DNA of 64,000 nucleotides from Rubrimonas sp. Lineage in GTDB: Bacteria; Pseudomonadota; Alphaproteobacteria; Rhodobacterales; Rhodobacteraceae. Both the position numbers and the translations under genes were made by a program. The DNA lies in the NCBI GenBank assembly GCA_036735545.1, contig DAINOD010000007.1:2972-66971 (forward strand), written 5' to 3'. Each line of letters opens with the position of its first letter. The first letter of the stretch is position 1. The notes beneath the pieces are model-generated. The model saw only the letters and a program-made list of their open reading frames with translations. It searched no databases and was not told the origin of the DNA. Shown piece after piece: positions 36,345 through 50,703 of this stretch.

Positions 36345-37916
36345 TCACGGCGGCGGCGCCACGCCGGCATAGACCGCGAGGGCGGCGACGAAGGCCGCCA
36401 CCGTCGTGCCGAGTTGGAAGAGGGCGAAGCGCTCGCGCCACCCGGAACCCTCGCCGGCGCTCTGGTTGCCGCGGTTCGACCACTTCTGCTTCGATAAGTG
36501 GAAGATCATGTATATCTTGACCGAAGCGTTTATCAACTGGTTGAAGTAGAGGATGAACGGCCAGCTCAGATCCGGCCTGCGCGCATAACTGTACAGTACG
36601 GTCGACAGAACCAGCCGGGAAGCCACCAGCCAGATCAGCACGTTCCAGAGATAGACGGGGTCGATCAGCGCGGCGAAGATGGCCAGCGCGGGACTGACCA
36701 TCATCGTCCACATCGCGATGCGCTGGTCCACGACGCACCACCAGATGAAGACCGGCATCGCCCTCGGGCCGAGAGCAATCGCCCGGGCGCCGTTTCGAAG
36801 CATGTTGCCGGACCAGCGGCGGAAGTTCTGCACCATGCGCTCCATCCCCGAGCCCTTGATCACTTCGATCGTGTAGACCGTGGCGTCGGGAACGTAGGTC
36901 ATCTTCGCTCCCTTCGAGAGCAGATGATACCAGGTGGACTTGTCGTCGCCGGAAAGGAAGCGGAAGCGGCCCCAGAGCCAGTGGTCCAGATGGTCGGCCT
37001 CGATCGTGCGGATGAACTTCGCATCCACGATGTGGCGGGCGCGGAAGACGCTCATCCGCCCGGTAAGGGTCAGCACGCGGTTCGAGACGGCATGGGACTG
37101 CATCGCGAGCCTGCGCTGGGCGAAACGCATCTCGAGCCAGCCGCCGATCCATCGGGGCCCGTAGCAGAGCACCTCCTCGTCGGTGGTGAGCGCCTCGAGC
37201 GCCGGGTCGGCGCCGAACATCGACAGCGTCTTCTCCAGCACGTCGGCGCCGAACACCGCGTCGCCGTCCATGAAGATGACGAGATCGTCGGGGTCCACGC
37301 CGCTTCGCGCCATGCCGCGCAGGATCAGGCCGATGGCCATGCGCTTGCCCGGCTGATTCTGGCGCACGAAGGTCAACTCGACGAGACCCGGCGGCAAGTC
37401 GGCGCCATGCGTCTCGACGAAGTCGCGGATGATCGTCTCGTCGAAGGCCGAGCCCGTGCCGATCCACAGCGAGGTTGGGATGCGCTCGCGCCGGACCTGC
37501 CGCAGGATCGACCCGATCACCGCGCGCGTGATGGCGGGCTCCTCGAAGTAGGTCGTCATCTGGATGTGGACGCGCCGCGGCCGCCAGCCGGCGGCCCAGA
37601 GCGCCGAGGCCGCGCGGCGCAGGGGCGGCCACTTCGCGCGGCGGAACCACTCCGCCCGCGCGGCGTGGGTGAACCACCAGCCGAAGCGCCAGAGCCCGAG
37701 CGCGCCCAGCGTGAAGGTGAAGGTCTGCAGATCGGGGCTGAGGAAGCGGTTGGGGACGAGCACGGCCAGGCCGAGGATCACGGCCCACAGCGCGCCGTAG
37801 AGCGCCAGAAAGGACGGCGTCCACTTGGCGAGGCCCCGCGGCGCGGGCGCCGCCAGATCGCGCAGGCGCGCGTCGAGGCTTTTGGCGAACGCGTAGTCGC
37901 CCGGGAGCGCCTGCAT
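36345..37916 (-). CDS. alg8: membrane GT2 polysaccharide synthase, Alg8-like (mannuronan synthase catalytic subunit)
   Basis: ORF 36345..37916. N- and C-terminal TM bundles around a GT2 core: IFMDGDAVF (DxD), LTTDEE, FLSGDDKSTWYHLL, and the QxxRW equivalent QNFRRWSGNMLRN. The order and wording of these motifs match my recollection of Pseudomonas Alg8. Confidence 0.75.
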   Translation of the reverse strand: MQALPGDYAFAKSLDARLRDLAAPAPRGLAKWTPSFLALYGALWAVILGLAVLVPNRFLSPDLQTFTFTLGALGLWRFGWWFTHAARAEWFRRAKWPPLRRAASALWAAGWRPRRVHIQMTTYFEEPAITRAVIGSILRQVRRERIPTSLWIGTGSAFDETIIRDFVETHGADLPPGLVELTFVRQNQPGKRMAIGLILRGMARSGVDPDDLVIFMDGDAVFGADVLEKTLSMFGADPALEALTTDEEVLCYGPRWIGGWLEMRFAQRRLAMQSHAVSNRVLTLTGRMSVFRARHIVDAKFIRTIEADHLDHWLWGRFRFLSGDDKSTWYHLLSKGAKMTYVPDATVYTIEVIKGSGMERMVQNFRRWSGNMLRNGARAIALGPRAMPVFIWWCVVDQRIAMWTMMVSPALAIFAALIDPVYLWNVLIWLVASRLVLSTVLYSYARRPDLSWPFILYFNQLINASVKIYMIFHLSKQKWSNRGNQSAGEGSGWRERFALFQLGTTVAAFVAALAVYAGVAPPP

Positions 37917-37917
37917 C

Positions 37918-39327
37918 TCAGCGGCTCCGGCCGAAAAGCGGGCCCAGCAGATCGCGGCGAACCACGATCTCGGCGGGTGCGTTGAAGGGCAGGGCCTCGC
38001 GCGCGGCCCCGGCGGTCATGCCGCTCGCCTCGATGGTGACGATCATCCCGAAAACGTCCGGGGCCGAAGGGTCGGCCCCCGCCTCGACCGCCGCCACGCG
38101 CCCTTCGATCTCCCGCGCCACGCCGCTGCTGCGCAGCAGGATATCGGCCCGCATGCCGATCCGCACCGATCCGGCCAGTCGGTCGTCGAGCCAGCCGCGC
38201 ACCATCCGCGGCGCGTCGGTTTCGAACACGGCGACGGGGTCGCCGGCGCGCACGTATTGCCCCTCGCGCGTCAGCCATTGAACGACGAGGCCGACGGCCG
38301 GCGCCGAGAGATTCATGTACTGTTCGGTCTGGCGCAGTCGCCGCAGATCGGCGACGGCGCGGTCCCGGTCGTTCTCGACGGAGCGCAACGTCGCCTCGAG
38401 CGCCGCGCGCCGATCATTGTGGTCGCCCTGCCGGAGGGGAACGCCCGCATCGAAGCGGCGCAGCGCCGAGGCCGAGTAGAGCCTCTCAACCATGGCGCGC
38501 GCCTCCTCGCGCACCGCGTCATGCGCGGCCAGCCGCGCGCGCGCCTCCGCCGCCATCGTCTCGAGCGCGGCATGCCGCGCGTCGACGTCCGCCAGCGCCT
38601 CCTCGCCCTCCGGCTTCTCGACGCGGGCCAGCACGGTCCCTTCCTGCGTGACGCTGTCCTGCGTCGCGAGCTGGCGGAGATAGCCTTCGCGCGGCGCGGT
38701 CAGCACGAGGCGCTCGGCCGTGACGCGGGCGTGCGACAGCGTCATGCCCTCGATGCGGCTCCAGGCGAGCGAGCCGACGAACCAGACGACCGCCACGAAC
38801 AGGCCCAGATGCCACGCGATGTTCAGCGCCGCGCGAAAGAAGCGGGGACGGGCGCGGGCGACGCCCGCGGCCTTCTCCGCCTCGGTCTCGCCCATCGGGA
38901 TCAGATCGACGGGGGTGTCGAGCGCGGTGATCACCTCCTCGGTTGCGGCCATCCTGCCGACCATGAGGTTGCGGTAGAACAGGCCGAGCGCCTCCCGCTG
39001 GCGGCCGGTCAGACCCTCGAAGGGCCGGAAGCCGCCCTCGCCCACGGGGCCGAACGCCACCGGGAAGCCGACTTCGACGCCCTGGAAGGGGATGAGCAGC
39101 CGCGCCCCGCCCAGATCGCGCCTGGACGGCGCGTCGTCGTAGACGCCCGAGAGCGACCAGCGTCGCACCATGAGCCGCCGGCCGTCCGGCAGGCCGATCA
39201 CGAGCGGCGCGACGACGGTGTGCTCGGTTTCCGGCGCCGGGCGCTCATGCCTGATCTGCACGCCGGAGGGCGCCGCCTCGAAGGTCCCAGGCGCATCGCG
39301 GTCGGCGGCCTGCAAGGGCGTGGTCAT
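37918..39327 (-). CDS. alg44: Alg44-like co-polymerase: PilZ-like N-domain, one TM, HlyD/membrane-fusion-like periplasmic domain
   Basis: ORF 37918..39354 (TTG). ATG at 39327 has a GGGAG 7 nt upstream. N-domain segments RRWSLSGV, LLIPFQGVEVGFPVAF and FEGLTGRQREALGLFYRNLMVGRMA parallel Alg44 DLSAGGF, LLFQVDSISFSLEVEF and FQNLKPREVAALRYLITSYLAGEV. TM AWHLGLFVAVVWFVGSLAW, then a coiled-coil/barrel MFP-like region. The stop is 1 nt from the alg8-like start. Confidence 0.65.
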   Translation of the reverse strand: MTTPLQAADRDAPGTFEAAPSGVQIRHERPAPETEHTVVAPLVIGLPDGRRLMVRRWSLSGVYDDAPSRRDLGGARLLIPFQGVEVGFPVAFGPVGEGGFRPFEGLTGRQREALGLFYRNLMVGRMAATEEVITALDTPVDLIPMGETEAEKAAGVARARPRFFRAALNIAWHLGLFVAVVWFVGSLAWSRIEGMTLSHARVTAERLVLTAPREGYLRQLATQDSVTQEGTVLARVEKPEGEEALADVDARHAALETMAAEARARLAAHDAVREEARAMVERLYSASALRRFDAGVPLRQGDHNDRRAALEATLRSVENDRDRAVADLRRLRQTEQYMNLSAPAVGLVVQWLTREGQYVRAGDPVAVFETDAPRMVRGWLDDRLAGSVRIGMRADILLRSSGVAREIEGRVAAVEAGADPSAPDVFGMIVTIEASGMTAGAAREALPFNAPAEIVVRRDLLGPLFGRSR

Positions 39328-39961
39328 GGCGGCGCTCCCTTCCGTCTCGGTCAAACCGCAGATAACCCAAGCGGGCCGCCTGCGCCGCGCCGATCAGGGA
39401 TGGGCGCAGGGCGCGCCCGGCTCGATCCCCTGTCCGAAAGGATAGGTCCCGCCGCGACCGACCGCGCGGGCCAAGGCTTCAGGCCGGCCGCCCAGCGCTC
39501 ATCGCGGAGACCTCGGCGACGCGCCCGTCCAGCGGCGGCGTCCCGATCTTCCGATGCGTCGACAGCCTGCCGTGCTGCGATGTGGACGGCGTCGAACCGT
39601 TCGGCGTCGGGCTGAGCCACATGATCGCCGTCGCCATCGGCGACACGATCCCTGGCGCCGAACGTGGCCGCGCGCAGGACGAAAGAACGGCGGTGGCGCG
39701 GCTGAACGCTCGCAGCGCGGCGCAGGCGTAGAAGACCGCCGCGCGTCTGGGCGGCTGGTCGCTGACGGTGATCGGCGACGTCGAGGCACTGGGGCGGCGC
39801 GGCCCCCGAGCAGTCCCGCTCGCGCCGTTCGCCGACGATGCAGCCTGACGCGCAGCCGACCGCGACCCTACCCGTTCGGATAGGGCGACCCTCCCGTCGC
39901 GCGCTGGCCTTCGCGACCGTGGGGCGTAAGGTGGCGATCGTCCGGGTGGAAGGATCGAACG

Positions 39962-41140
39962 GTGCGCATCGCGACAGCCAGATCCGTCGCCCGGTCGGCG
40001 ACGCAGGCGGCCGAGGAACTCGCGGCGGAGCTGGGCGTCGACACCCTTGGCGCCCCGGACTTCCTCGCGGTCCACTTCTCGGCGGGCATCGACGCCGAGG
40101 CGTTGCGTGGGGCCGCCTTGGCGCGGTTGGGGACGGCGACGCTCCACGGCGGGTCGTCCTGCCTTGGGGTCATGTCCCAAGCGGGCGTGGACATCGAGGG
40201 CGGCGTCGGCGCGCTCGCGATCTGGGATCAGGCTGGCGACTATGGCGTTGCGTCGGCCACGCTCGGCGCGGACGCGCGCGAGGCCGCGCGCACGGCCGCC
40301 ACGGCGGCGCTCACGGCGGCGGGGCGGCCCGGCGAAATGCCCGAGCTGGTCTGGCTGTCGGTCGCCCCGGGGCGGGAGGAGGAGGCGCTGGCGGGTCTGC
40401 GGGACGCTCTCGGGCCCGACGCGCTGATCGTCGGGGGCAGTTCCGCCGACGATCATGTGAGCGGCGGCTGGCGGCAGTTCGGGCCTGAGGCCTCACACGC
40501 CGACGGCGTCGTGGTCTCGACGCTGTTTCCCTCGGCCCCTGTGGTGTCGATCTATCAGAGCGGCTACGCGCCGACCGGCGAAAGCGGCGTCGTCACCCGT
40601 GTCGACGGGCGACGCCTCTACGAGATCGACGGCCGGTCGGCCGCCGAGATCTATGGCCGCTGGACCGGCGGCGCGGTCCCCGCGGCGACCGACGCGCCCG
40701 TCTCGATCCTCGCCGCCGCCACACTCTGGCCGCTCGGGCGGGTGACGCGCCATGTGGCGGGCGTGCCGTTCCACCTGCTGGCGCATCCGGCGGCCGCGCA
40801 CCCCGACGGATCGCTGGACCTGTTCGCCGACGTCGCGGTCGGCGATCGGCTCTGGCAGATGCAGGGATCGGGCGACAGCCTCGTGGCGCGCGCGGGCCGG
40901 ATCGCGCGACAGGCGCGCGAGCAGGCGGGCGGGACCGTGCGCGGCGCGCTGATCGTCTATTGCGGCGGCTGCATGCTCGCGGTGCGCGAGCGGATGCACG
41001 AGGTCCGCGCCGGCGTCGAGGCCGCGCTGGGTGGCGCGCCCTGGCTCGGGGTGTTCACTTTCGGGGAACAGGGCGCGCCGCTGGGCGGGCGGTCCGAACA
41101 CGGCAACCTGATGATCTCCTGCACCGCTTTCGGAGGTTGA
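39962..41140 (+). CDS. stand-alone FIST_N + FIST_C protein (same architecture as the NO sensor NosP)
   Basis: ORF 39962..41140 (GTG after GGAAGGA). FIST-like PDFLAVHFSAGIDAEALRGAALARLGTATLHGGSSCLGVM. FIST_C-like GALIVYCGGCMLAV..LGVFTFGEQG..HGNLMISCTAF. No output domain. Confidence 0.7.
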   Translation: MRIATARSVARSATQAAEELAAELGVDTLGAPDFLAVHFSAGIDAEALRGAALARLGTATLHGGSSCLGVMSQAGVDIEGGVGALAIWDQAGDYGVASATLGADAREAARTAATAALTAAGRPGEMPELVWLSVAPGREEEALAGLRDALGPDALIVGGSSADDHVSGGWRQFGPEASHADGVVVSTLFPSAPVVSIYQSGYAPTGESGVVTRVDGRRLYEIDGRSAAEIYGRWTGGAVPAATDAPVSILAAATLWPLGRVTRHVAGVPFHLLAHPAAAHPDGSLDLFADVAVGDRLWQMQGSGDSLVARAGRIARQAREQAGGTVRGALIVYCGGCMLAVRERMHEVRAGVEAALGGAPWLGVFTFGEQGAPLGGRSEHGNLMISCTAFGG

Positions 41141-41143
41141 GGC

Positions 41144-41695
41144 ATGAAGGGCGTCATCTTCGTCGAACTCCTCGCCATGGCGGAGGACGCTTTCGGCGAG
41201 GCGGTGGTCGACCGCGTGATCGAGGCTGCGCGGCTGCCGTCAGGCGCCGCCTACACGAGGACCGGCAATTACCCCTGCGAGGAACTGCTGACGCTTGTCC
41301 GCGCCTTCGCGGCGTTGGACGGGAGCTCCGAGGACGCTCTCCAGCGCTCTTTCGGTCATTGGACCATGCGGAGCTTCGAGCGGCACTATCCCCGGTTCTT
41401 CTCCGGTCACGCCGGCAGCCTCGACATGCTGTCGGGGATCGAGGACGATATCCACGCCGAAGTGCGCAAGCTTTATCCCGACGCGGACCTTCCCAGCTTC
41501 GAGACGGTGCGACATGGCCCCGACGCGCTGGACATGACCTACAGGTCGCCCCGCCCGCTCGCCGCGTTCTGCCACGGGCTGATCGAGGCGTGCGTCGAGC
41601 ATTTCGGCGAGCGCGCGCGCATCGAGCGCCGCGACCCCGGCGTCGAGAACCGGACGGAGGCGCGCTTCAGCATCCGGACCGCCCCTCCGGAATGA
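41144..41695 (+). CDS. hnoX: H-NOX (heme nitric oxide/oxygen binding) protein
   Basis: ORF 41144..41695. MKGVIFVELLAMAEDAFGEAVVDRVI N-terminus. Candidate proximal His104 (IEDDIHAEVRKLYP, nt 41453-41455). Y133-R-S135-P-R137 = YxSxR heme-propionate motif (nt 41540-41554). 183 aa, starts 3 nt after the FIST gene. Confidence 0.8.
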   Translation: MKGVIFVELLAMAEDAFGEAVVDRVIEAARLPSGAAYTRTGNYPCEELLTLVRAFAALDGSSEDALQRSFGHWTMRSFERHYPRFFSGHAGSLDMLSGIEDDIHAEVRKLYPDADLPSFETVRHGPDALDMTYRSPRPLAAFCHGLIEACVEHFGERARIERRDPGVENRTEARFSIRTAPPE

Positions 41696-44600
41696 GCGAG
41701 CGCGACCCGGCGGCTCCGGTCTCCCGGGCGCGCTACGAGCGCGAGCGGCGCGCGCGCGCCGAAGCGGAGGCCCTGCTCGAGACCAAGAGCCGCGAACTCT
41801 TCGAGGCGAGCCGCCGCCTGGTGCTGGAGAGCGAGGCCGTGCGCGCCGCGCTGGCCGAGACCCACGCCCTGCGCGCGCGCGAGGCCGAGGCGCTTGAGGA
41901 GCAGTCGATCTTGTCCGGCGCCCTGGCCGCGCTGTCGGGGCGCGACGGCGCGGCCGAGGCCATGCAGGCGCTGCTCGAGACCCTGCGCTCGGGTTTCTCG
42001 GCCTCCCTGGCCTGCTACGTGCAGGCGGCGGGACCGACGCTGCGCATCGCGGCCAGCGCAGGCGCCGGCGGCGCCGGGACCGACCTGCCCGTTGCTGCCG
42101 GGCTGATCGACCGGCCGCGCCGCATCGCGGGGCTCGCGGCTCTCGCCGATGGCCGCCCCCTGCCGGGGCGCATCGCCGACTGCGCCGCCGTTCTCGTGGC
42201 GCCGCTCAGGCTGCCCGAGGAGGCGGCGGGCGCGCTGCTGCTGGGCGCGACCGAGGCGGGTGGTTTCTCGGCCGCCAGACTACGCCTGCTTGACCGCGTG
42301 GCGGCGGTGGCGACGCCTGCGCTGACAGCGCTCCGAGCCGCGCGGCGCAACGCGCTGCTGGTCTCCCTTATCGAGGGGCGGCCGATAGCGGGCGAAGGCG
42401 GCGTGCTCGACACCCCCCTGGAAGCCGTGCACCGGGCCTTCGCCAGGCTGACCGACATGCAGGGCGAGGTCGTGGGGGTCCTCGACGCGCTGCTCGGCGC
42501 TCCGCTGGCCGAGGCGGACGCGGCGATCGAGGCGGCGCTGGCCCGGATGGGAGCGCTGACGCGCAGCGACCGCGTCCATGTCGTCAGATTCAGCGACGAC
42601 GGAGACGCCGGCGGGACCAGCCACGCATGGCGCCGGCGCGGGGCAAGGGCCTTGCGCGAGGGGCCCGAGGGTATCCCCGCCGCGACAATGGCCGCCTGGC
42701 GGGAGGCCTTCGGCGACGGGCGCGACGTGCTCATCCCCGACGTGACGATCATGCCTGACGATGCTCCGGAGAAGGCGATCCTGCTCGGCCAGGGCGTCCG
42801 CTCCCTGTTCGGCACGCCCATGATCGATCACGGCGCGCTGCGCGGGATCGTCTGCTACGAAACGGCGACGGCGCAGCGCAGCCTGCTGCCCGGCGAGGTC
42901 TATCTGATCCGCTCCGTGGCGAGGGTCATCGCGACGCTGCTGGCGAGGCGCGACGCCGAGGCGGCGCTTCACGCCGCCAATGCCGAGACCGAGGCCGAGC
43001 GCGCCCGGCTGCAGTCCGTTCTGGCGGCGATGCCCGACCTGCTGATCGAACTCGATCGCGACGGCCAGACTGTAGGCTGGCGCTCTGGCGAAGGCGTCCG
43101 GCCTGCCGCCTTCGCCGCCGGAGCAGAGGGCCGCACGCCGGAGCAGGCGCTGCCCGAGCCTCTCGCGGCGCACGCGCGCGCCATGACCGTCGAGATCGAC
43201 GCCGGCCGCCGGCCTCAGCCGCGCGTGTTCGCCCATCCTCCAGACGGCGACGCGGCGCGCTGGTGGCAGGTCTCGGCCTCGGCGCTGGCGGAGCGCGGCT
43301 ATCTGCTGGTGCTGCGCGACGTCACCGAGGCGCGCGCGCAAACGGCCCTCATCGAGCGCCTCTCCGAGATCGCGCGGCGCACGACCAACCTCGTGGTGGT
43401 CACCGACGCCGAACGGCGCATCGAGTGGGTGAACGCGGCCTTCGAGCGCGCCACGGGCTGGCGGCTCGATGAGGTGCGGGGCGACGGCGCGGGCCGCCTG
43501 CTGCAATGCGAGGCCACCGATCCGGCGACCGTGGCGCGGCTTCGCGCGGCGCTCGACGCGGGCGAGGCGATACAGGCCGAGATCCTCAACCGCGCGCGCG
43601 ACGGCCGACACTACTGGGTTGCGCTCGACATCCAGCCGCTGCGCGACGCCGCGGGCGCCCTGCAGGGTTTCATGGCCGTGGAGATCGACGTCACCGAACG
43701 CCGCGCCCAGGCCGACGCGCTGCGCGCCGCCGCCGACGATGCAGCGCGGGCGCGCGCGACGCTGGAGGCTGCGGTGGGAGCGCTGCAGGACGGCTTCGCG
43801 CTCTACGACGCCGAGGACAGGCTCGTGATCTGCAACGAGCGCTACCGTCAGGTCTATCCCCGCTCCGCCGAAGCCATCCGGCCGGGCGAAACCTTCGAGG
43901 CGATCCTGCGCGCGGGCCTCGCGCTGGGGGAGTACGCCGACGCCGTGGGGCGCGAGGAGGATTGGCTCGCCGAGCGCCTCGCCCGCCACCGCGCACCCTA
44001 CAACGAGGTGGAGCAGCGGCTCTCGGATGGCCGGTGGCTGCGCGTCTTCGAGAAGGCGACCCCCGACGGCGGGCGGGTCGGCCTGCGGGTCGACATCACG
44101 GCGCTGAAGCGCGCCGAGCAGCGGGCGCTCGCCGACCGCTCCGCCGCCATGGAGGCGAGCCAGGACGGCATCGCCATCACCGACGCCGAGGGGCGGTTCG
44201 TCTACATGAACCGCGCACACCTCGCCCTGTTCGGGTTTGACGACGAGGCGCAGGTGATCGGCCGCCCGTGGAGCATCCTCTACGCGCCCGACGCGGCGCG
44301 GTGGATGGAGGCGAACGCGCTTCCCGCGCTTCGGCGCACGGGGCGCTGGTCGGGCGAGATCATGGGCCGCGCCCGAGACGGCGCGCCGGTGGACCAGGAC
44401 GTGTCGCTCACGCTGAAGGACGACGGCGGAATCCTGTGCATCGTGCGCGACATGCTTTTCCGTCGCCGCGAGGCGGAGGAGCGCGAGCGGCTGCGCGAGG
44501 AACTCCGGCTCTCGCAGCGCCGCGAGATCATCGGGCGGACGGCGGCGGGGCTCGCGCACGATTTCAACAACCTGCTTGCGGCGATTTCGGGCGGCGCCGC

Positions 44601-45648
44601 GCTCATCGAGGCGGGGGCCGAGGCGGGCGGGGTCGCCGCCGCCGGGGCCGCGCGCATCCAGAAGGCGGCCGATCAGGCGGCGGGCCTCGTGCGGCGGCTG
44701 CTGTCGCTCGGCGCGCGGCCCCAGCCGAGCGCGCCGCTCGACATGCGAAAGACGCTGGTCGAGGCGGGTCAACTTGTGCGCGCCGGCCTGCGGGCTCCCG
44801 CGCGCCTGCGCGTCGAGACGCCCGATGCGCCGATGATGGCGCTGGCGGACGCCACCGATGTCCTTCAGGTGGCGCTGAACCTCGCCATCAACGCCCGCGA
44901 CGCGCTTGGCGGGGCCGCGGGCGAGATCGTCCTCGCGCTGAGCGAGGCGCGGAGCGACGATCTGGCGGGCCCTTTCGTCGCGGGCGCGGTGGACCCGAGG
45001 CGGCCCTATCTGCTGCTGAGCGTTCGCGACGATGGGCCCGGCATGACCCCCGAGCTCGCGGCTCAGGTTTTCAGGCCCTATTTCACCACCAAGGGCGACG
45101 AAGGCTCGGGACTGGGCCTCGCCGTCGTCGCGTCGGTCGTCACGGCCCATGGCGGGGCGGTCCGGCTCGATACCGCGCCGGGGCGCGGCGCGCGCTTCGA
45201 CGTGTTGTGGCCGGCGGCGGACGGCGCAGCGCCGACCGCCGCCGGAGCGGTCGACGGGCTGAGCGGGCGGCTCGACGGCCGGGCCGTCCTCGTCGTCGAC
45301 GACGATCACGACGTGCTCGCGACGCATGTCGCGATCCTGGAGGCGGCCGGGGCGGAGGTCGCGCCGTCCACCGATCCGGCGGATGCGCTGGAGGCGCTTG
45401 TCGAGGATCCGGACGCCTGGGACCTGCTGGTGACCGACTTCGACATGCCCGGCATGACCGGCGCCGAACTCACCGGGCGCGCACGCGCGATAGTTCCCCG
45501 GCTGCCCGTGGTGCTTGTGACCGCGCTGGCGGGCGCCGGGTGGCGCGAGGGAGCGACCTTCGACGCCGTGCTGCCCAAGCCCGTGGGGCGCGAGGCGCTT
45601 GTCATCGCCGTCGAGACGGCGATACTCGCGCGGCGAGACAAGGTTTGA
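41692..45648 (+). CDS. cytoplasmic hybrid sensor histidine kinase (coiled coil, 2 GAF-like, ~4 PAS, HisKA, HATPase_c, receiver)
   Basis: Part of ORF 40960..45648. ATG at 41692 overlaps the H-NOX TGA (ATGA). No TM segment. PAS-like blocks (e.g. NLVVVTDAERRIEWVNAAFERATGW; DGFALYDAEDRLVICNERYRQVYP; DGIAITDAEGRFVYMNRAHLALFGF). H-box AAGLAHDFNNLLAAI, G-box GDEGSGLGLAVV. Receiver VLVVDDDHDVL..LLVTDFDMPGMTG..LPKPV. Confidence 0.85.
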   Translation: MSERDPAAPVSRARYERERRARAEAEALLETKSRELFEASRRLVLESEAVRAALAETHALRAREAEALEEQSILSGALAALSGRDGAAEAMQALLETLRSGFSASLACYVQAAGPTLRIAASAGAGGAGTDLPVAAGLIDRPRRIAGLAALADGRPLPGRIADCAAVLVAPLRLPEEAAGALLLGATEAGGFSAARLRLLDRVAAVATPALTALRAARRNALLVSLIEGRPIAGEGGVLDTPLEAVHRAFARLTDMQGEVVGVLDALLGAPLAEADAAIEAALARMGALTRSDRVHVVRFSDDGDAGGTSHAWRRRGARALREGPEGIPAATMAAWREAFGDGRDVLIPDVTIMPDDAPEKAILLGQGVRSLFGTPMIDHGALRGIVCYETATAQRSLLPGEVYLIRSVARVIATLLARRDAEAALHAANAETEAERARLQSVLAAMPDLLIELDRDGQTVGWRSGEGVRPAAFAAGAEGRTPEQALPEPLAAHARAMTVEIDAGRRPQPRVFAHPPDGDAARWWQVSASALAERGYLLVLRDVTEARAQTALIERLSEIARRTTNLVVVTDAERRIEWVNAAFERATGWRLDEVRGDGAGRLLQCEATDPATVARLRAALDAGEAIQAEILNRARDGRHYWVALDIQPLRDAAGALQGFMAVEIDVTERRAQADALRAAADDAARARATLEAAVGALQDGFALYDAEDRLVICNERYRQVYPRSAEAIRPGETFEAILRAGLALGEYADAVGREEDWLAERLARHRAPYNEVEQRLSDGRWLRVFEKATPDGGRVGLRVDITALKRAEQRALADRSAAMEASQDGIAITDAEGRFVYMNRAHLALFGFDDEAQVIGRPWSILYAPDAARWMEANALPALRRTGRWSGEIMGRARDGAPVDQDVSLTLKDDGGILCIVRDMLFRRREAEERERLREELRLSQRREIIGRTAAGLAHDFNNLLAAISGGAALIEAGAEAGGVAAAGAARIQKAADQAAGLVRRLLSLGARPQPSAPLDMRKTLVEAGQLVRAGLRAPARLRVETPDAPMMALADATDVLQVALNLAINARDALGGAAGEIVLALSEARSDDLAGPFVAGAVDPRRPYLLLSVRDDGPGMTPELAAQVFRPYFTTKGDEGSGLGLAVVASVVTAHGGAVRLDTAPGRGARFDVLWPAADGAAPTAAGAVDGLSGRLDGRAVLVVDDDHDVLATHVAILEAAGAEVAPSTDPADALEALVEDPDAWDLLVTDFDMPGMTGAELTGRARAIVPRLPVVLVTALAGAGWREGATFDAVLPKPVGREALVIAVETAILARRDKV

Positions 45649-45653
45649 CAGAA

Positions 45654-46271
45654 ATGCGCGTGCTGATCGCCGATGACCACGACCTGTTGCGCGACACCCT
45701 CGAACTGTGGTTCCGGCAAGAGAAGATCGACGTCGTCTCGGCGCGCGACCTCGACGCCGCGATGGCGGCCGTGGCGGCGGCCACCGAACCCTTCGACCTG
45801 ATCTTGCTCGACTACACCATGCCCGGCATGAACGGGCTCGACGGGCTTGGCCGCGCGCTGCGGGAGGGCGGCGGGACGCGCGTCGCCATCATGTCGGGGA
45901 GCGCCCCGCGCGAGGTGGCCGAGCGCGCGCTCGAGTCCGGCGCCTCCGGCTTCCTGCCCAAGACGCTGCCCGCCCGCACGCTGGTCAACGCCGTCCGCTT
46001 CATGGCGATGGGCGAGCAGTACGCGCCGGTCGACTTCATGACCGCGCCGCCCGAGGCGACGCCGGTCAACCCGCTCGCGGAGCGGCTGACCGCGCGCGAG
46101 TTGGACGTGCTGGAGAAGCTCTGCGAAGGGCTCGCCAACAAGGAGATCGCCCGCGCCCTCGGCATCCAGGAGCCCACGGTCAAGCTCCACATGAAGACGC
46201 TCTATCGCAAGATCGGCGCGAGCAACCGCACCCAGGCCGCGATGATGGCGAAACAGGCGGGCTTGTTCTAG
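45654..46271 (+). CDS. NarL/FixJ (LuxR-type HTH) response regulator
   Basis: Last 205 codons of ORF 44268..46271. ATG 5 nt after the kinase stop. Receiver MRVLIADDHDLLRD..LILLDYTMPGMNG..LPKTL. HTH LTARELDVLEKLCEGLANKEIARALGIQEPTVKLHMKTLYRKIG. Confidence 0.9.
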   Translation: MRVLIADDHDLLRDTLELWFRQEKIDVVSARDLDAAMAAVAAATEPFDLILLDYTMPGMNGLDGLGRALREGGGTRVAIMSGSAPREVAERALESGASGFLPKTLPARTLVNAVRFMAMGEQYAPVDFMTAPPEATPVNPLAERLTARELDVLEKLCEGLANKEIARALGIQEPTVKLHMKTLYRKIGASNRTQAAMMAKQAGLF

Positions 46272-46708
46272 CGGCCTTCAGGCGCAGTCCGGCGGTCTGT
46301 CAGGGTCGGGGCGAAGATCGTCATGCGTGAATGGAAGACCCTGAGCCGCCTTCTCGCCTTTGACGCCGCCCCCTACCTGCGGTTGTTCCGCGAGCAGGTC
46401 GAGGTGGCGACGGGACGGATTCGCCGCTCTGACGCCGTCGGAGGTCGATGCGGCGCTGGACGGCGGCAGGTTCGGCGTCATCCGCCATGTCGCCGCCTGG
46501 CGCCTCGCCCGCCGGCGTCCTGCGTTTACGGCGGCGTGACCGGCTAGGCCGCCTATCCTTTCGGGCAGCCCGCCGCCCCGAACGACGTCCCAACCGACGC
46601 CAGCGCAGGGGGCGACGCCCCGGCCGCGCCCCGCGCCCATCCCGGGGCGCGCGGGCGCCGCGCCGTCGCTGCTGGCACACGGTCTCCAACGCAACAGGAG
46701 ATCCCGCC

Positions 46709-48091
46709 ATGCTGAACCAAAGCGTCGCCCTCTTCGGCTCGACCGCCCCTGCCGCCCGCCCCGTCGTCTCCGTGGTCGGGCTCGGCTATGTGGGCGCCGT
46801 CTCCACCGCCTGCCTCGCAGGCCTAGGCCACCGCGTCGTCGGCGTGGACGTCGACCCGGTCAAGGTTCAGGCGGTCGGCGAAGGGCGCTCGCCGATCCAC
46901 GAGGCCGATCTCGGTCGTCTGCTCTCCGAGGGCGTCGCCGCGGGTCGCATCTCCGCCACCCACGACCTGCCCGCCGCTGTGGTCGCCTCGGACGTGACCT
47001 TCGTCTCGGTCGGCACGCCCACCGCCGCCGACGGCGGTTGCGACCACCGCTACATCGTCGCCGCCGCGCGCGGCATCGGCGAGGGCCTCAAGCGCAAGGG
47101 CGCCTTCCATGTCGTCGTGATGCGCTGCTCGATCCCGCCGGGCTCGACCATGGGCGTCATGGTCCCCGAAATCGAGGCCGCCTCGGGCCTGACCGCCGGC
47201 CGGGACTTCGGCGTGTGCTTCAACCCCGAGTTCCTGCGCGAAGGGGTGGCGGTCGCCGACTTCCACGCGCCGCCCAAGACGGTGATCGGCGTGACCGACC
47301 CCGCCACCGCCGCGCTGATGGCCCGTCTCTACGCCGACGTCGACGCGAACCCCATCGTCACCTCGATCGAGGTCGCCGAGATGGTGAAGTATGTCGACAA
47401 CGTCTGGCACGCCGCCAAGGTCACCTTCGCCAACGAGGTCGGCCGGCTGTGCAAGCCGCTCGACGTGGACAGCCACGAGGTGATGAACATCTTCGTGCGC
47501 GACACGAAGCTGAATCTGTCGCCCTACTATCTCCGGCCCGGCTTCGCCTATGGCGGCTCGTGCCTTCCCAAGGAAGTGCGCGCGGTCGCTCACCTGGCGG
47601 AAAGGCTCGGCGTCGACCTGCCGCTGATCGGCGCGCTCGACCGCTCGAACGCCAGCCAGATCGCCGAGGCGGCGCGGATGGTGAAGGCGACAGGGGCCCG
47701 CCGCGTCGCGGTGCTGGGCCTCGCCTTCAAGCCGGGCACCGACGATCTGCGCGAGAGCCCGATCCTCGAAGTCATGGCCGATCTTCTCGACCACGGCGTC
47801 GAGATCCTCGCCCACGACCCCGCGATCACCGCCGAGACGCGCATCGAGGCGCAGCTCGGCTACGTCGCCCACGCCTCGAAGGGCCTCGGGCGCCTCGCGA
47901 GCGGCCTTCGCGCCATGCTGGCGGACAGCGCGGCCGAGGCCGTCGACGCCGCCGACGCGGTGATCGTCACCCACGCGCACCCCGCCTACCGCGCGCTCGC
48001 CGCCGTCGCCGGCAAGCCGGTGATCGACGTGGCGCGACTGTGGATGTCCCGCGCCGACCAGCCCGCCCACCTCCAGGGCATCGGCTGGTGA
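46709..48091 (+). CDS. algD: GDP-mannose 6-dehydrogenase (AlgD-like)
   Basis: Part of ORF 46448..48091. ATG after AGGAG. [75 protein letters not shown]; C-terminal ..LQGIGW. These parallel Pseudomonas AlgD (..[24 protein letters not shown].., ..[24 protein letters not shown].., ..GICW) as I recall it. Confidence 0.8.
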   Translation: [460 protein letters not shown]

Positions 48092-48125
48092 GCCAATCCC
48101 CTCCCCGTTCTTCCGGAGACGAGCC

Positions 48126-48539
48126 ATGACCCTGCACGCACCCCTGCTCGCTGCGCCCTCCGCCGTCCCCGCCGATGCGCCGCTGCACGAGAACCGCCCC
48201 TGGGGCGCATTCTGGAGCCTCGACCGCGGCGCCGCGCATCAGGTGAAGCGCATCCGCGTCAATCCCAAGGGCCGGCTGTCGCTGCAGTATCACCACCACC
48301 GCGCCGAGCGCTGGGTGGTGATCGAGGGCACCGCCACGATCACCGTCGACGACGCCGTGATGAAGGTGAAGCCCGGCGGCGTGGTGATGATCCCGAAGGG
48401 CGCGGTTCACCGGCTGGAGAACCTGACCAGATCCCCCGTCGAGATCATCGAGGTCCAGATGGGCGACTACCTCGGCGAGGACGACATCGTGCGCCTCGAC
48501 GACGCCTACGGACGACCCGGGCGCGTGGCGCGCGGCTGA
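48126..48539 (+). CDS. stand-alone type II phosphomannose isomerase cupin domain (AlgA/ManC C-terminal-like)
   Basis: ORF 48126..48539. ENRPWGAFWSL..VKRIRVNPKGRLSLQYHHHRAERWVVIEGTA..IPKGAVHRLEN..EIIEVQMGDYLGEDDIVRLDDAYGR is the PMI-type cupin. No nucleotidyltransferase domain. Confidence 0.7.
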   Translation: MTLHAPLLAAPSAVPADAPLHENRPWGAFWSLDRGAAHQVKRIRVNPKGRLSLQYHHHRAERWVVIEGTATITVDDAVMKVKPGGVVMIPKGAVHRLENLTRSPVEIIEVQMGDYLGEDDIVRLDDAYGRPGRVARG

Positions 48540-48594
48540 CGCCGGCCGGGGCGGGCGCCCTGCGACGCCGGCATGACCTCCCAACAGCATCGAG

Positions 48595-50703
48595 GTGAAT
48601 CACATGACGACTGCGATCACGCCCGTCCTCGGGACGGCCGGGAACGACGTGCTGCACGGCGCCGCCGGCGGCGACATCATTTCCGGGCGCCAGGGCGACG
48701 ACATCCTTCACGGCCATGGCGGCGATGACCTGATCCATGGCGGTTCGGGCAACGACACGATCCATGGCGGCGCCGGCGACGACATCCTCTACGGCGGCGG
48801 CGGGCCGACGCTGCTGCGGATGGATCGACTGACCATCGCCGAGGATTACCTGGGCCGCGTGACCTTCATCGATGAAGGCGCAGGGTTCCGCAACACACTC
48901 GGAATGTACCGGATTGGCGAGGATGGTACGATTTCGGACGTGCAGATCCTGTTTCTGAACGCCTCGAAGGTCGGATCGGGCGGCGACCTGATCCCGGGTC
49001 AATCCCATGTCGATGTTCCGTTGCAGGCGGGCGACCAGATCGGGTTCTTCATCCTGTCGAACGGCTTCGGGCAAACCACAGGCCGGCTTCCGACCGCGCC
49101 GGGAACGTTCGAGTTCAGAAACGCCGCAGGGCAGCCCGGCAACATCGACAATCAGGGTAACCTGACGCTCTGGCATGTCGCGCCCGATGGCGCGCGGACC
49201 GCCATGCGCACGCAATACGGCACCGACACCTACCATGCGGCCGCGCGCCCCGAAAACAACTTCGCGCTGAACCCCGACAATTTCGGCCACACGGTTGGTC
49301 GTCTGGAAACCCGGCAGGGCGCCGTGCTGCTGGGCTTCGAGGATTTGCGCAACGGGGGAGACAAGGACTTCGACGACGTCATGTTCCGCTTCGATGTCGG
49401 CCAGTCGAATGCACGCGTCCTCGACCCCAACATCGTCTACGGCGCGGATGCCGAGGTGGCGCCCTCGTTCTTCTACGACGCGGACGGCATCCGTCGCGAC
49501 ATGCAGGGCGAGGTCCTCGATCAGGAGAATGACGTCATCCATGGCGGCGACGGCGACGACACGATCTATGGCGGCGTCGGGCATGACCGCCTCCATGGCG
49601 GCGATGGCGACGACGTCATCTACGGCAACTCCGGCGACGACATTCTCTGGGGCGACCGGGGCGACGACACGCTCTATGGCGGCAAGGGGGATGACATCCT
49701 CCATGGCGGCGCAGGCAACGACGAGTTGCACGGCGACAGCGGAAACGACACGCTCCATGGCGGCGACGGCGACGACGTTCTTTACGGTGGATCGGGCGAT
49801 GATGTCCTGCATGGAGATGCCGGCAACGACACGCTCTATGGCGGCGCCGGCAACGACACGCTCTACGGCGGCTCTGGCGACGACGTGCTGGACGGCGGCA
49901 GCGGCAACGACTGGCTTTATGGCGGCGCGGGCAACGACACCCTGCACGGCGGTGATGGCGAGGACGTCCTGTTCGGCGGCACGGGCAGCGACAGGCTGTA
50001 CGGCGGGGCGGGTGACGACATCCTGCATGGCGGGGACGGCAACGACTATCTCGATGGCGGATCCGGCGACGACGAGTTGTATGGCGGGATCGGCAACGAC
50101 GAACTGCATGGCGGGGCAGGCGATGACCTGCTCGACGGCGGCGAGGGCGACGACAAGCTCCATGGCGGGGCCGGGAATGACGTTCTGCATGGCGGGGCCG
50201 GCAACGATCAGCTTTGGGGCGGCACCGGCAACGACATCCTCCATGGAGGTGACGGCGACGACCGCCTTTATGGCGGGGAAGGCGACGACATCCTTCATGG
50301 CGGCGACGGCGACGACCGGCTCGAAGGCGGCAAGGGCGACGACGTCCTCCATGGCGGCGCGGGCGACGACCGGCTGTTCGGCGGCGAGGGTGACGACATC
50401 CTGATCGGCGGCGCCGGCGCCAACGTCCTGACCGGCGGCGCCGGCGCGGATTGCTTCGTGTTCGACGTGGCGGTGTCGGCGACCGACCGGATCACCGATT
50501 TCGAGTGCGGCGTCGACCGGATCGAGATCTTCGGCCTGCTCGGCGAGGGTTTCTCCCCCGTTACATTCCGCGAGGCCAGCTTCGGGATCGACGACGCCGG
50601 GACAGTCCGCATCGCCGAGGGCGGATGGTCGGTCGAGATCACGAACCGCTTCGGAGTCGGCGACTTCGCGGCGCAGGTCTGGGACAGCGTGCTCTTCGTG
50701 TGA
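48595..50703 (+). CDS. RTX (hemolysin-type Ca-binding) repeat protein with central DUF4114-like domain
   Basis: ORF 48595..50703, 702 aa. GGxGxDxUx nonapeptides at aa ~14-70 and aa ~312-620. Central [45 protein letters not shown] matches DUF4114. About 80-aa non-repeat C-terminus, as in T1SS substrates. No signal peptide. Confidence 0.85.
48634..48804 (+). repeat. N-terminal block of ~6 RTX nonapeptide repeats
   Basis: [53 protein letters not shown] read from the ORF translation. Confidence 0.85.
49528..50454 (+). repeat. C-terminal block of ~34 consecutive RTX nonapeptide repeats (27-nt periodic DNA)
   Basis: aa 312-620 ([24 protein letters not shown] ... [19 protein letters not shown]). 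The DNA is correspondingly periodic (ggcggcgMcggcgacgac variants). Confidence 0.9.

Follow-up and report, generated by a model that had tools for sequence, protein, structure and literature searches.

Gene content and layout of the operon

The window analysed here is a 64 kb stretch of Rubrimonas sp. DNA (contig DAINOD010000007.1; approximately 72% G+C) in which four close-packed genes on the forward strand encode a FIST-domain protein, a stand-alone H-NOX protein, a hybrid histidine kinase and a NarL-type response regulator. The locus is a real, conserved and uncharacterised dual-sensor two-component operon. A probability of roughly 0.6 was assigned to the preferred explanation as a whole, that is, to a four-gene signalling operon together with the mechanism proposed for it below.

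The first gene (39962..41140) starts with GTG, ends with TGA and encodes a protein of 392 amino acids; a Shine-Dalgarno-like GGAAGGA is located 8 nt 5' of the start, the position of which is in line with 23 homologues. A 3-nt gap, ggc, separates its stop codon from the start of hnoX (41144..41695; 183 amino acids), whose stop codon is in turn overlapped as ATGA by the ATG at 41692 of the kinase gene (41692..45648; 1,318 amino acids). An earlier sequence-only reading of the locus had described these junctions, and they proved exact when the coordinates were checked. The same reading recognised the FIST, hnoX and kinase genes and overlooked the fourth gene, which starts 5 nt after the kinase stop codon and encodes a regulator of 205 amino acids (45654..46271). 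Identical H-NOX and FIST proteins with the same gene calls were present on contigs of the metagenome-assembled genome GCA_964525855.1, and the nearest named relatives were Rhodobacterales, including Rubellimicrobium, Aliishimia, Tabrizicola, Pseudotabrizicola and Roseinatronobacter. A scan of positions 39300-46800 for sigma-70 promoters and intrinsic terminators yielded one of each, both within coding sequence, the 72% G+C content making such a scan uninformative. Across the full 64 kb neither Rfam nor a tRNA scan gave a match.

The H-NOX protein scored 122.2 bits against Pfam HNOB (PF07700; cut-off 25.5), with residues 2-161 aligned to positions 1-162 of the 163-position model, and the closest solved chains were 6BDE and 6OCV (E of approximately 1e-30). 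Residues were compared with those of Tt H-NOX, using a reference sequence verified as identical to chain A of 1U4H. H104 aligns with the proximal His102 of Tt H-NOX, and Y133, S135 and R137 align with Y131, S133 and R135 of the YxSxR motif; all four also match the equivalent positions in 6BDE and 6OCV and, together with F142, are invariant across 27 members of the clade. The proximal histidine and YxSxR residues named in the sequence-only reading were thus borne out, as was its H-NOX assignment. The distal residues W9, N74 and Y140, which stabilise O2 in Tt H-NOX, are replaced by L9, T74 and F142, leaving no distal hydrogen-bonding Tyr, Trp or Asn. According to established knowledge of the family, the protein is therefore predicted to be of the nitric oxide (NO)-selective type. 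A zinc or cysteine redox site has been reported in Vibrio cholerae H-NOX. A conserved counterpart was considered for the window protein and rejected: only C45 and C143 are invariant, while C150 and H153 vary.

Pfam placed GAF_2 at residues 89-211 of the kinase, GAF at 276-415, PAS at 556-672, 698-810 and 818 to approximately 930, HisKA at 949-1006, HATPase_c at 1053-1175 and REC at 1199-1307; residues from approximately 435 to 550 are PAS-like. No transmembrane segment was predicted (maximum Kyte-Doolittle 19-residue mean of 1.57). The description of a soluble kinase of 1,318 amino acids carrying about two GAF and about four PAS modules was accordingly a fair one. The HisKA match (22.3 bits) falls under the cut-off of 26.9, and the DHp assignment is supported by the conserved H-box: H956 in 'LAHDFNN', like the receiver aspartate D1249 in 'TDFDMPG', is kept in orthologues. 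Matches to GAF_2 and GAF_3 were also under their cut-offs, making the first GAF the least secure of the domain assignments. The second PAS domain (43360-43707; residues 557-672) is LOV-derived, with sub-cut-off NCBIfam matches to the LOV kinase (81 bits) and YtvA (69 bits) families. Two distant FIST-linked kinases (L106 and L108) retain the photoactive sequence 'GRNCRFL' or 'GENCRML'; the clade possessing both FIST and hnoX reads 'GRNxGxFLQ' ('GDGAGRLLQ' in the window), and the adduct-forming cysteine has therefore been lost.

The regulator has the NarL/FixJ-type composition of a receiver domain (Response_reg, 79.3 bits) with an acceptor aspartate, D53 in 'LLDYTMPG', followed by a GerE helix-turn-helix (71.1 bits). 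Its best NCBIfam matches, both below cut-off, were NarL (107.7 bits) and ErdR (106.2 bits). A regulator gene directly follows the kinase gene in L005, L006, L009-L013, L024, L041 and L084-L086, and the regulator is the probable cognate output of the kinase. The operon contains no gene for an Hpt protein. Phosphate may accordingly pass straight from His to Asp, the internal receiver serving as a sink, or travel via an unlinked Hpt protein.

Recurrence of the cassette and composition of the kinase

Loci for comparison were obtained from an H-NOX profile scan of one genome per GTDB species (80 loci) and a FIST profile scan of metagenomes (79 loci). A FIST gene was found directly upstream of hnoX in the loci of the nine closest H-NOX proteins (63-69% identity; L004-L012) and in L024 and L041; downstream, contig permitting, these loci encode a kinase of approximately 1,320 amino acids and a regulator of approximately 205 amino acids. 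Among FIST genes whose products share 62% identity or more, hnoX comes next in each case where the contig is long enough to show it (L088-L093, L103, L120 and L152); the same holds for one at 53% identity (L117). Together with the window, these loci make up the set possessing both sensor genes. Junctions across the loci consist of 3-4 nt gaps or 4-nt overlaps, with an ATGA overlap between hnoX and the kinase gene in every case. The exception to this spacing is L041, where 172 nt separate FIST from hnoX and 18 nt separate the kinase from the regulator. The cassette occurs in about 20 independent loci, mostly of Rhodobacterales, and since the order FIST-hnoX-kinase recurs there with tight spacing it is not a chance adjacency. 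Cultured carriers include Pseudotabrizicola sediminis DRYC-M-16 and Aliishimia ponticola MYP11.

Cassettes with one sensor gene were also found. Three loci, from Gemmobacter denitrificans, Roseicyclus mahoneyensis and a third genome (L084, L085 and L086), encode a close FIST homologue, an orthologous kinase of 1,318-1,323 amino acids and the regulator; the gap of 64-162 nt between FIST and kinase is too small for hnoX. A Rhodobacterales genome from Lake Pavin (L013) possesses hnoX, kinase and regulator, with no FIST gene within 8 kb and no FIST remnant upstream of hnoX (best tblastn E = 0.77). FIST proteins of lower similarity (49-56% identity) are encoded beside related GAF/PAS hybrid kinases, the regulator lying upstream in some and downstream in others; none of these loci contains hnoX. 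The occurrence of the orthologous kinase with both small proteins, with FIST alone and with H-NOX alone suggests two separable inputs to one kinase, and the sister lineages lacking either sensor constitute natural controls. Neighbour joining of 26 long kinases gave an indicative tree whose outgroups are exclusively FIST-only and in which the close relatives that are FIST-only or hnoX-only nest within the clade possessing both. Because of this branching, the simplest reading suggested by the sequences is an ancestral FIST-kinase-regulator cassette that gained hnoX once and subsequently underwent secondary losses. The proposal of the sequence-only reading that two sensors converge on one kinase is upheld in so far as two separate small proteins accompany a single multi-domain kinase in three variant arrangements; its description of both as gas or redox sensors is, for FIST, a hypothesis.

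The N-terminus of the kinase provides a further indication of its origin. In approximately 65 other Rhodobacterales H-NOX loci (L015-L083) hnoX is followed by a gene for a protein of 450-590 amino acids whose similarity to the window kinase is limited to residues from approximately 5 to 80 and to the catalytic and receiver part. These short kinases are sensor-less hybrids consisting, by Pfam, of an N-terminal segment, HisKA from residues 73-86 or thereabouts, HATPase_c and REC, with an additional Hpt in the longer form. The motif VSRxRYERExxARxEAExLLExKSRELxxAN is common to the N-termini of the short kinases and of the window kinase, where it occupies codons from approximately 4 to 56 (41701..41859, forward strand; VSRARYERERRARAEAEALLETKSRELFEA) and represents the proposed H-NOX coupling segment. 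The first 50 or so residues of the short kinases are strongly conserved and rich in arginine and glutamate; no description of this motif was found in the literature searched.

A hidden Markov model (HMM) of the motif was trained on 65 short hnoX-adjacent kinases with all long kinases excluded. It matched the window kinase at residues 4-56 with 53.7 bits and every long kinase downstream of hnoX with 54-67 bits; the three hnoX-less close relatives scored 58.8, 36.4 and 23.1 bits, and the distant FIST-only kinases gave no match. All 95 open reading frames (ORFs) bearing the motif in approximately 2 Mb of DNA start beside hnoX, with the exception of four FIST-only ORFs (L084-L087). Among FIST-selected loci, nine possess both hnoX and the motif, none hnoX without the motif, four the motif without hnoX and 30 neither. 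Conservation of the motif relative to the remaining protein gave ratios of 0.99-1.47 in hnoX carriers; in the hnoX-less lineages the ratios were 0.94 (L085), 0.76 (L086, the lowest) and 1.27 (L084). When the 88-residue N-terminal helix was searched against 5.8 billion proteins only three short fragments passed, so that the specificity of the motif was assessed solely within loci selected for H-NOX or FIST.

Since the motif is shared with the short hnoX-linked kinases and absent from the distant FIST-only kinases, the window kinase looks like a FIST-linked GAF/PAS kinase to which hnoX and an HnoK-type helix have been added by capture. hnoX was likely acquired jointly with the 5' end of an hnoK-type gene, and the N-terminal helix is, judging from its distribution, likely to be the site of H-NOX coupling. 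It thereby offers a concrete, mutable candidate for such a site in a large set of kinases from marine Rhodobacterales.

The system resembles the Roseobacter-clade pair SiliH-NOX/SiliHK of Silicibacter sp. TrichCH4B and the HnoX/HnoK pairs of Shewanella and Vibrio in that a stand-alone H-NOX gene of approximately 180 codons overlaps the gene of a downstream cytoplasmic hybrid kinase, and in the conservation of the proximal His and YxSxR in the absence of a distal tyrosine. The N-terminal motif of approximately 50 residues directly after hnoX is that of the 65 short kinases, the grouping of these with SiliHK being drawn from the published architecture of the latter and not from sequence. Unlike SiliHK and HnoK, which have no sensor domain of their own, the window kinase has approximately 860 residues of GAF/PAS modules between the helix and the DHp domain (residues from approximately 89 to 930), and a FIST gene precedes hnoX. 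The output also differs, as the window operon encodes a NarL-type transcription factor whereas the SiliHK/HnoK systems employ an Hpt-to-diguanylate-cyclase relay. In the Silicibacter system the NO-bound H-NOX inhibits autophosphorylation of the kinase (PMC4436077).

An alternative is that one of the two small proteins alone regulates the kinase and the other acts elsewhere or on its neighbour, for example FIST on H-NOX, the operon serving co-expression. The indications of direct interaction are genomic, and diguanylate cyclases are further known targets of characterised H-NOX proteins, both of which would accommodate such an arrangement. Either small gene can nevertheless be found without the other beside an orthologous kinase (FIST in L084-L086, hnoX in L013), hnoX and kinase overlap as ATGA in every locus examined, and the kinase retains the HnoK-type motif, so that regulation by one protein alone appears very unlikely.

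The FIST protein and the proposed mechanism

Two bacterial heme sensors for NO at low levels have been proposed, H-NOX and NosP, and the sequence-only reading had described the first gene product as NosP-like. Pfam identified FIST at residues 35-225 (96.5 bits; cut-off 23.2) and FIST_C at 227-371 (79.5 bits; cut-off 28.5) with no further domain, and the architecture of NosP, FIST_N plus FIST_C in one stand-alone protein, was therefore substantiated. The gene also shares a same-strand operon with a histidine kinase gene, one short gene (hnoX) lying between them; in the hnoX-less relatives L084-L086 FIST directly adjoins the kinase. Membership of the family was not substantiated. The protein scored 23.9 bits against a cut-off of 450 for the NosP equivalog model NF041558, with only the N-terminal half aligned, a score to be read in the knowledge that the recall of the model among characterised NosPs was not gauged. 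The kinase likewise scored 100.7 against 1,500 for the NahK/ErcS' model NF041831 and 60.8 against 400 for NF041832 (near_NosP_CTERM). On account of the NosP and NahK scores 'NosP-like' is here confined to architecture, and by sequence family the FIST protein is judged not to be a NosP orthologue. A further FIST protein, encoded before a hybrid kinase on NZ_AP026896.1 (L167), a chromosome-sized PLSDB 'plasmid' of Aeromonas caviae (4.94 Mb), also fails the NosP model with 48.1 bits against 450.

An AlphaFold (AF2) model of the FIST protein with a predicted local distance difference test (pLDDT) score of 81.7 was compared with the PDB. The best fold matches were the FIST domain of human FBXO22 and Toblerone-fold cyclic amide hydrolases (TM of approximately 0.4-0.55), neither of which reveals a heme site. 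A PDB sequence search with the FIST protein found no relevant solved structure, and neither sequence nor fold search yielded a bacterial FIST or NosP structure. Among 68 homologues (31-69% identity) virtually no variation was seen at H275, H380 and C334, and little at C67 and C337; these residues are no more than candidates for cofactor ligands. For the kinase, the protein may represent a second sensor or an accessory component.

Several features recall the NosP-NahK systems of Pseudomonas aeruginosa (PA1975/PA1976), Legionella pneumophila, V. cholerae and Burkholderia pseudomallei, namely a stand-alone FIST_N/FIST_C protein encoded with a soluble, PAS-rich hybrid kinase and a NarL/ErdR-like regulator. 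Unlike those systems the window has hnoX between FIST and kinase, and its FIST subfamily is a different one. One interpretation of this likeness is that the FIST protein is a true NosP-type hemoprotein with an affinity or kinetics different from those of H-NOX, the kinase thereby reading a wider range of NO concentration or time. The gene neighbourhood favours it, as does the second place of ErdR among the matches of the regulator, ErdR being the regulator associated with NahK/ErcS', and H275, H380 and C334 could ligate a cofactor. The scores against the three NCBIfam models, the lack of a solved bacterial structure in which to place a heme site and the state of knowledge of FIST domains, ligand binding by which is poorly understood according to a review of cyclic di-GMP sensory systems, argue in the other direction, and a second NO sensor of this kind is considered unlikely.

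Alternatively, FIST may sense a cue other than NO, such as a metabolite, cysteine redox state or heme availability, with the kinase acting as a coincidence detector of that cue and NO. In the tree the FIST-kinase-regulator cassette is older than the arrival of hnoX, and many lineages operate it without that gene; C67, C334 and C337 are conserved, and the FIST domain of V. cholerae CdpA has been reported in the same review to respond to heme itself. Against this, the sequence allows no ligand to be deduced and the hnoX-less cassettes have heterogeneous neighbours; a non-NO cue is put forward tentatively, as a possibility short of an even chance.

In the characterised organisms each sensor type has a partner kinase in a locus of its own, as the sequence-only reading stated, in agreement with the published systems. 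L. pneumophila carries nosP-nahK-narR, hnox1-lpg1057 and hnox2-lpg2458-lpg2457 as separate operons with separate kinases, and in V. cholerae NosP/VpsS and H-NOX/HnoK are likewise separate systems. FIST genes have been noted in the neighbourhood of 'group 1' H-NOX genes in similarity and neighbourhood networks from the Yukl laboratory (PMC8738867), a survey result of one sentence whose group 1 may correspond to the window clade, and which comes without operon, kinase, hnoX-less or FIST-less variants or chimeric N-terminus. The bare association of FIST and H-NOX neighbourhoods is therefore already in print. Full-text literature searches combining FIST with H-NOX, HNOB or NosP returned nothing beyond that paper; the operon, the single composite kinase, the three variants, the HnoK-type helix and the exopolysaccharide context were not found in the literature searched.

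To our knowledge every characterised H-NOX or NosP has its own kinase, and the only cross-talk described is that linking distinct pathways. In Shewanella oneidensis, NosP/NahK is reported to feed into an H-NOX/HnoK multicomponent network, in work by Nisbett et al. of 2019. FIST-type and H-NOX-type sensors there reportedly converge on one output, as proposed for the window, through two kinases encoded at separate loci and shared downstream components; the window has one kinase polypeptide in one operon. This compactness brings within reach of in vitro tests the relation between the two inputs (redundant, additive or logical), the docking sites of the small proteins and the question of heme binding by this FIST subfamily.

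From the gene structure, domain content, key residues, modular occurrence and shared N-terminal motif observed at these loci, we infer a sequence of binding events, a sign of regulation and a set of target genes. Two separately encoded cytoplasmic sensor proteins would control one soluble kinase. H-NOX would bind ferrous heme via His104 and, from knowledge of the family, sense NO and not O2; it would act on the kinase through the N-terminal helix of approximately 50 residues common to the sensor-less hnoX-linked kinases, and by the precedent of SiliH-NOX/SiliHK the default expectation is that the NO-bound form would inhibit autophosphorylation. FIST would be the older partner of the kinase lineage and supply a second input, heme or NO if it is NosP-like and otherwise a small molecule or redox cue, with further inputs from the GAF and PAS modules. 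The kinase would autophosphorylate at H956 and the phosphate would pass to D53 of the adjacent regulator, the receiver aspartate D1249 either competing as a sink or relaying via a separate Hpt protein. The regulator would then control the flanking exopolysaccharide genes.

Several points weigh against this explanation. The link of either small protein to the kinase is a genomic one, suggested by gene order and sequence. The kinase tree was built by neighbour joining and carries no support values. The association of motif and hnoX within the long kinases represents a single evolutionary gain, so the contingency counts overstate independence; loci were sampled via H-NOX or FIST, leaving kinases that possess the motif and neither neighbour unsampled, and decay of the motif after loss of hnoX is seen in two lineages only (L085 and L086) and not in L084. 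The kinase has no Hpt domain, which makes the route of phosphotransfer to the regulator uncertain. The window is also without the mannose-1-phosphate guanylyltransferase and phosphomannomutase genes found beside the cassette elsewhere.

Flanking genes and a candidate exopolysaccharide target

Divergent from the cassette, on the reverse strand (36345..39354), are genes encoding a family-2 glycosyltransferase (Glyco_tranf_2_3, 95.3 bits) and an HlyD-like membrane-fusion protein (HlyD_3, 53.8 bits), a pair that also flanks the cassette in L009, L010, L089, L091 and L092. Downstream on the forward strand (46709..50703), Pfam and NCBIfam identified genes for a nucleotide-sugar dehydrogenase, a mannose-6-phosphate isomerase-type cupin and an RTX/DUF4114 protein; this group is syntenic in L006, L009, L010, L089 and L091. 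The cassette lies within the same sugar-nucleotide/glycosyltransferase cluster in at least eight loci. A mannose-1-phosphate guanylyltransferase gene is located directly upstream of FIST in at least eight loci possessing both sensor genes, six of which also carry a divergent phosphomannomutase gene and two a Sel1-repeat gene as well; the window has no Sel1-repeat gene. Neighbours of the hnoX-less cassettes (L084-L086) are unrelated and heterogeneous. The cluster was observed in the window, at L010 (2982-6692) and at L007, L009, L011 and L089-L092; outside the window it also draws on an alginate-like gene set of mannose-1-phosphate guanylyltransferase, phosphomannomutase and Sel1-repeat protein.

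The flanking glycosyltransferase/HlyD and dehydrogenase/cupin/RTX genes are a candidate exopolysaccharide module and candidate regulatory target. The synteny of the sugar-nucleotide and glycosyltransferase genes argues for such a target, and the regulator most likely controls these genes, to judge from their conserved proximity; a mannose-derived, alginate-like exopolysaccharide is a reasonable proposal. NO sensing is linked to biofilm formation, with which an exopolysaccharide target is in keeping, and the link fits the role of NO in moving Roseobacter-group bacteria between attachment to surfaces and a free-living state. A more specific version of the preferred explanation, in which the kinase is a natural chimera with an HnoK docking helix, H-NOX and FIST bind different regions, FIST senses a non-NO cue and the whole forms a coincidence switch of a mannose-derived exopolysaccharide cluster, is regarded as somewhat unlikely in that full form. 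If it is true, the natural FIST-only and hnoX-only versions would serve as ready controls for what FIST domains sense.

The RTX protein (48595-50703) comprises 702 amino acids with 17 matches to RTX calcium-binding repeats in addition to DUF4114. Genes for RTX proteins are also located near hnoX in many unrelated Rhodobacterales loci, including L015, L018, L028, L036, L037 and L039.

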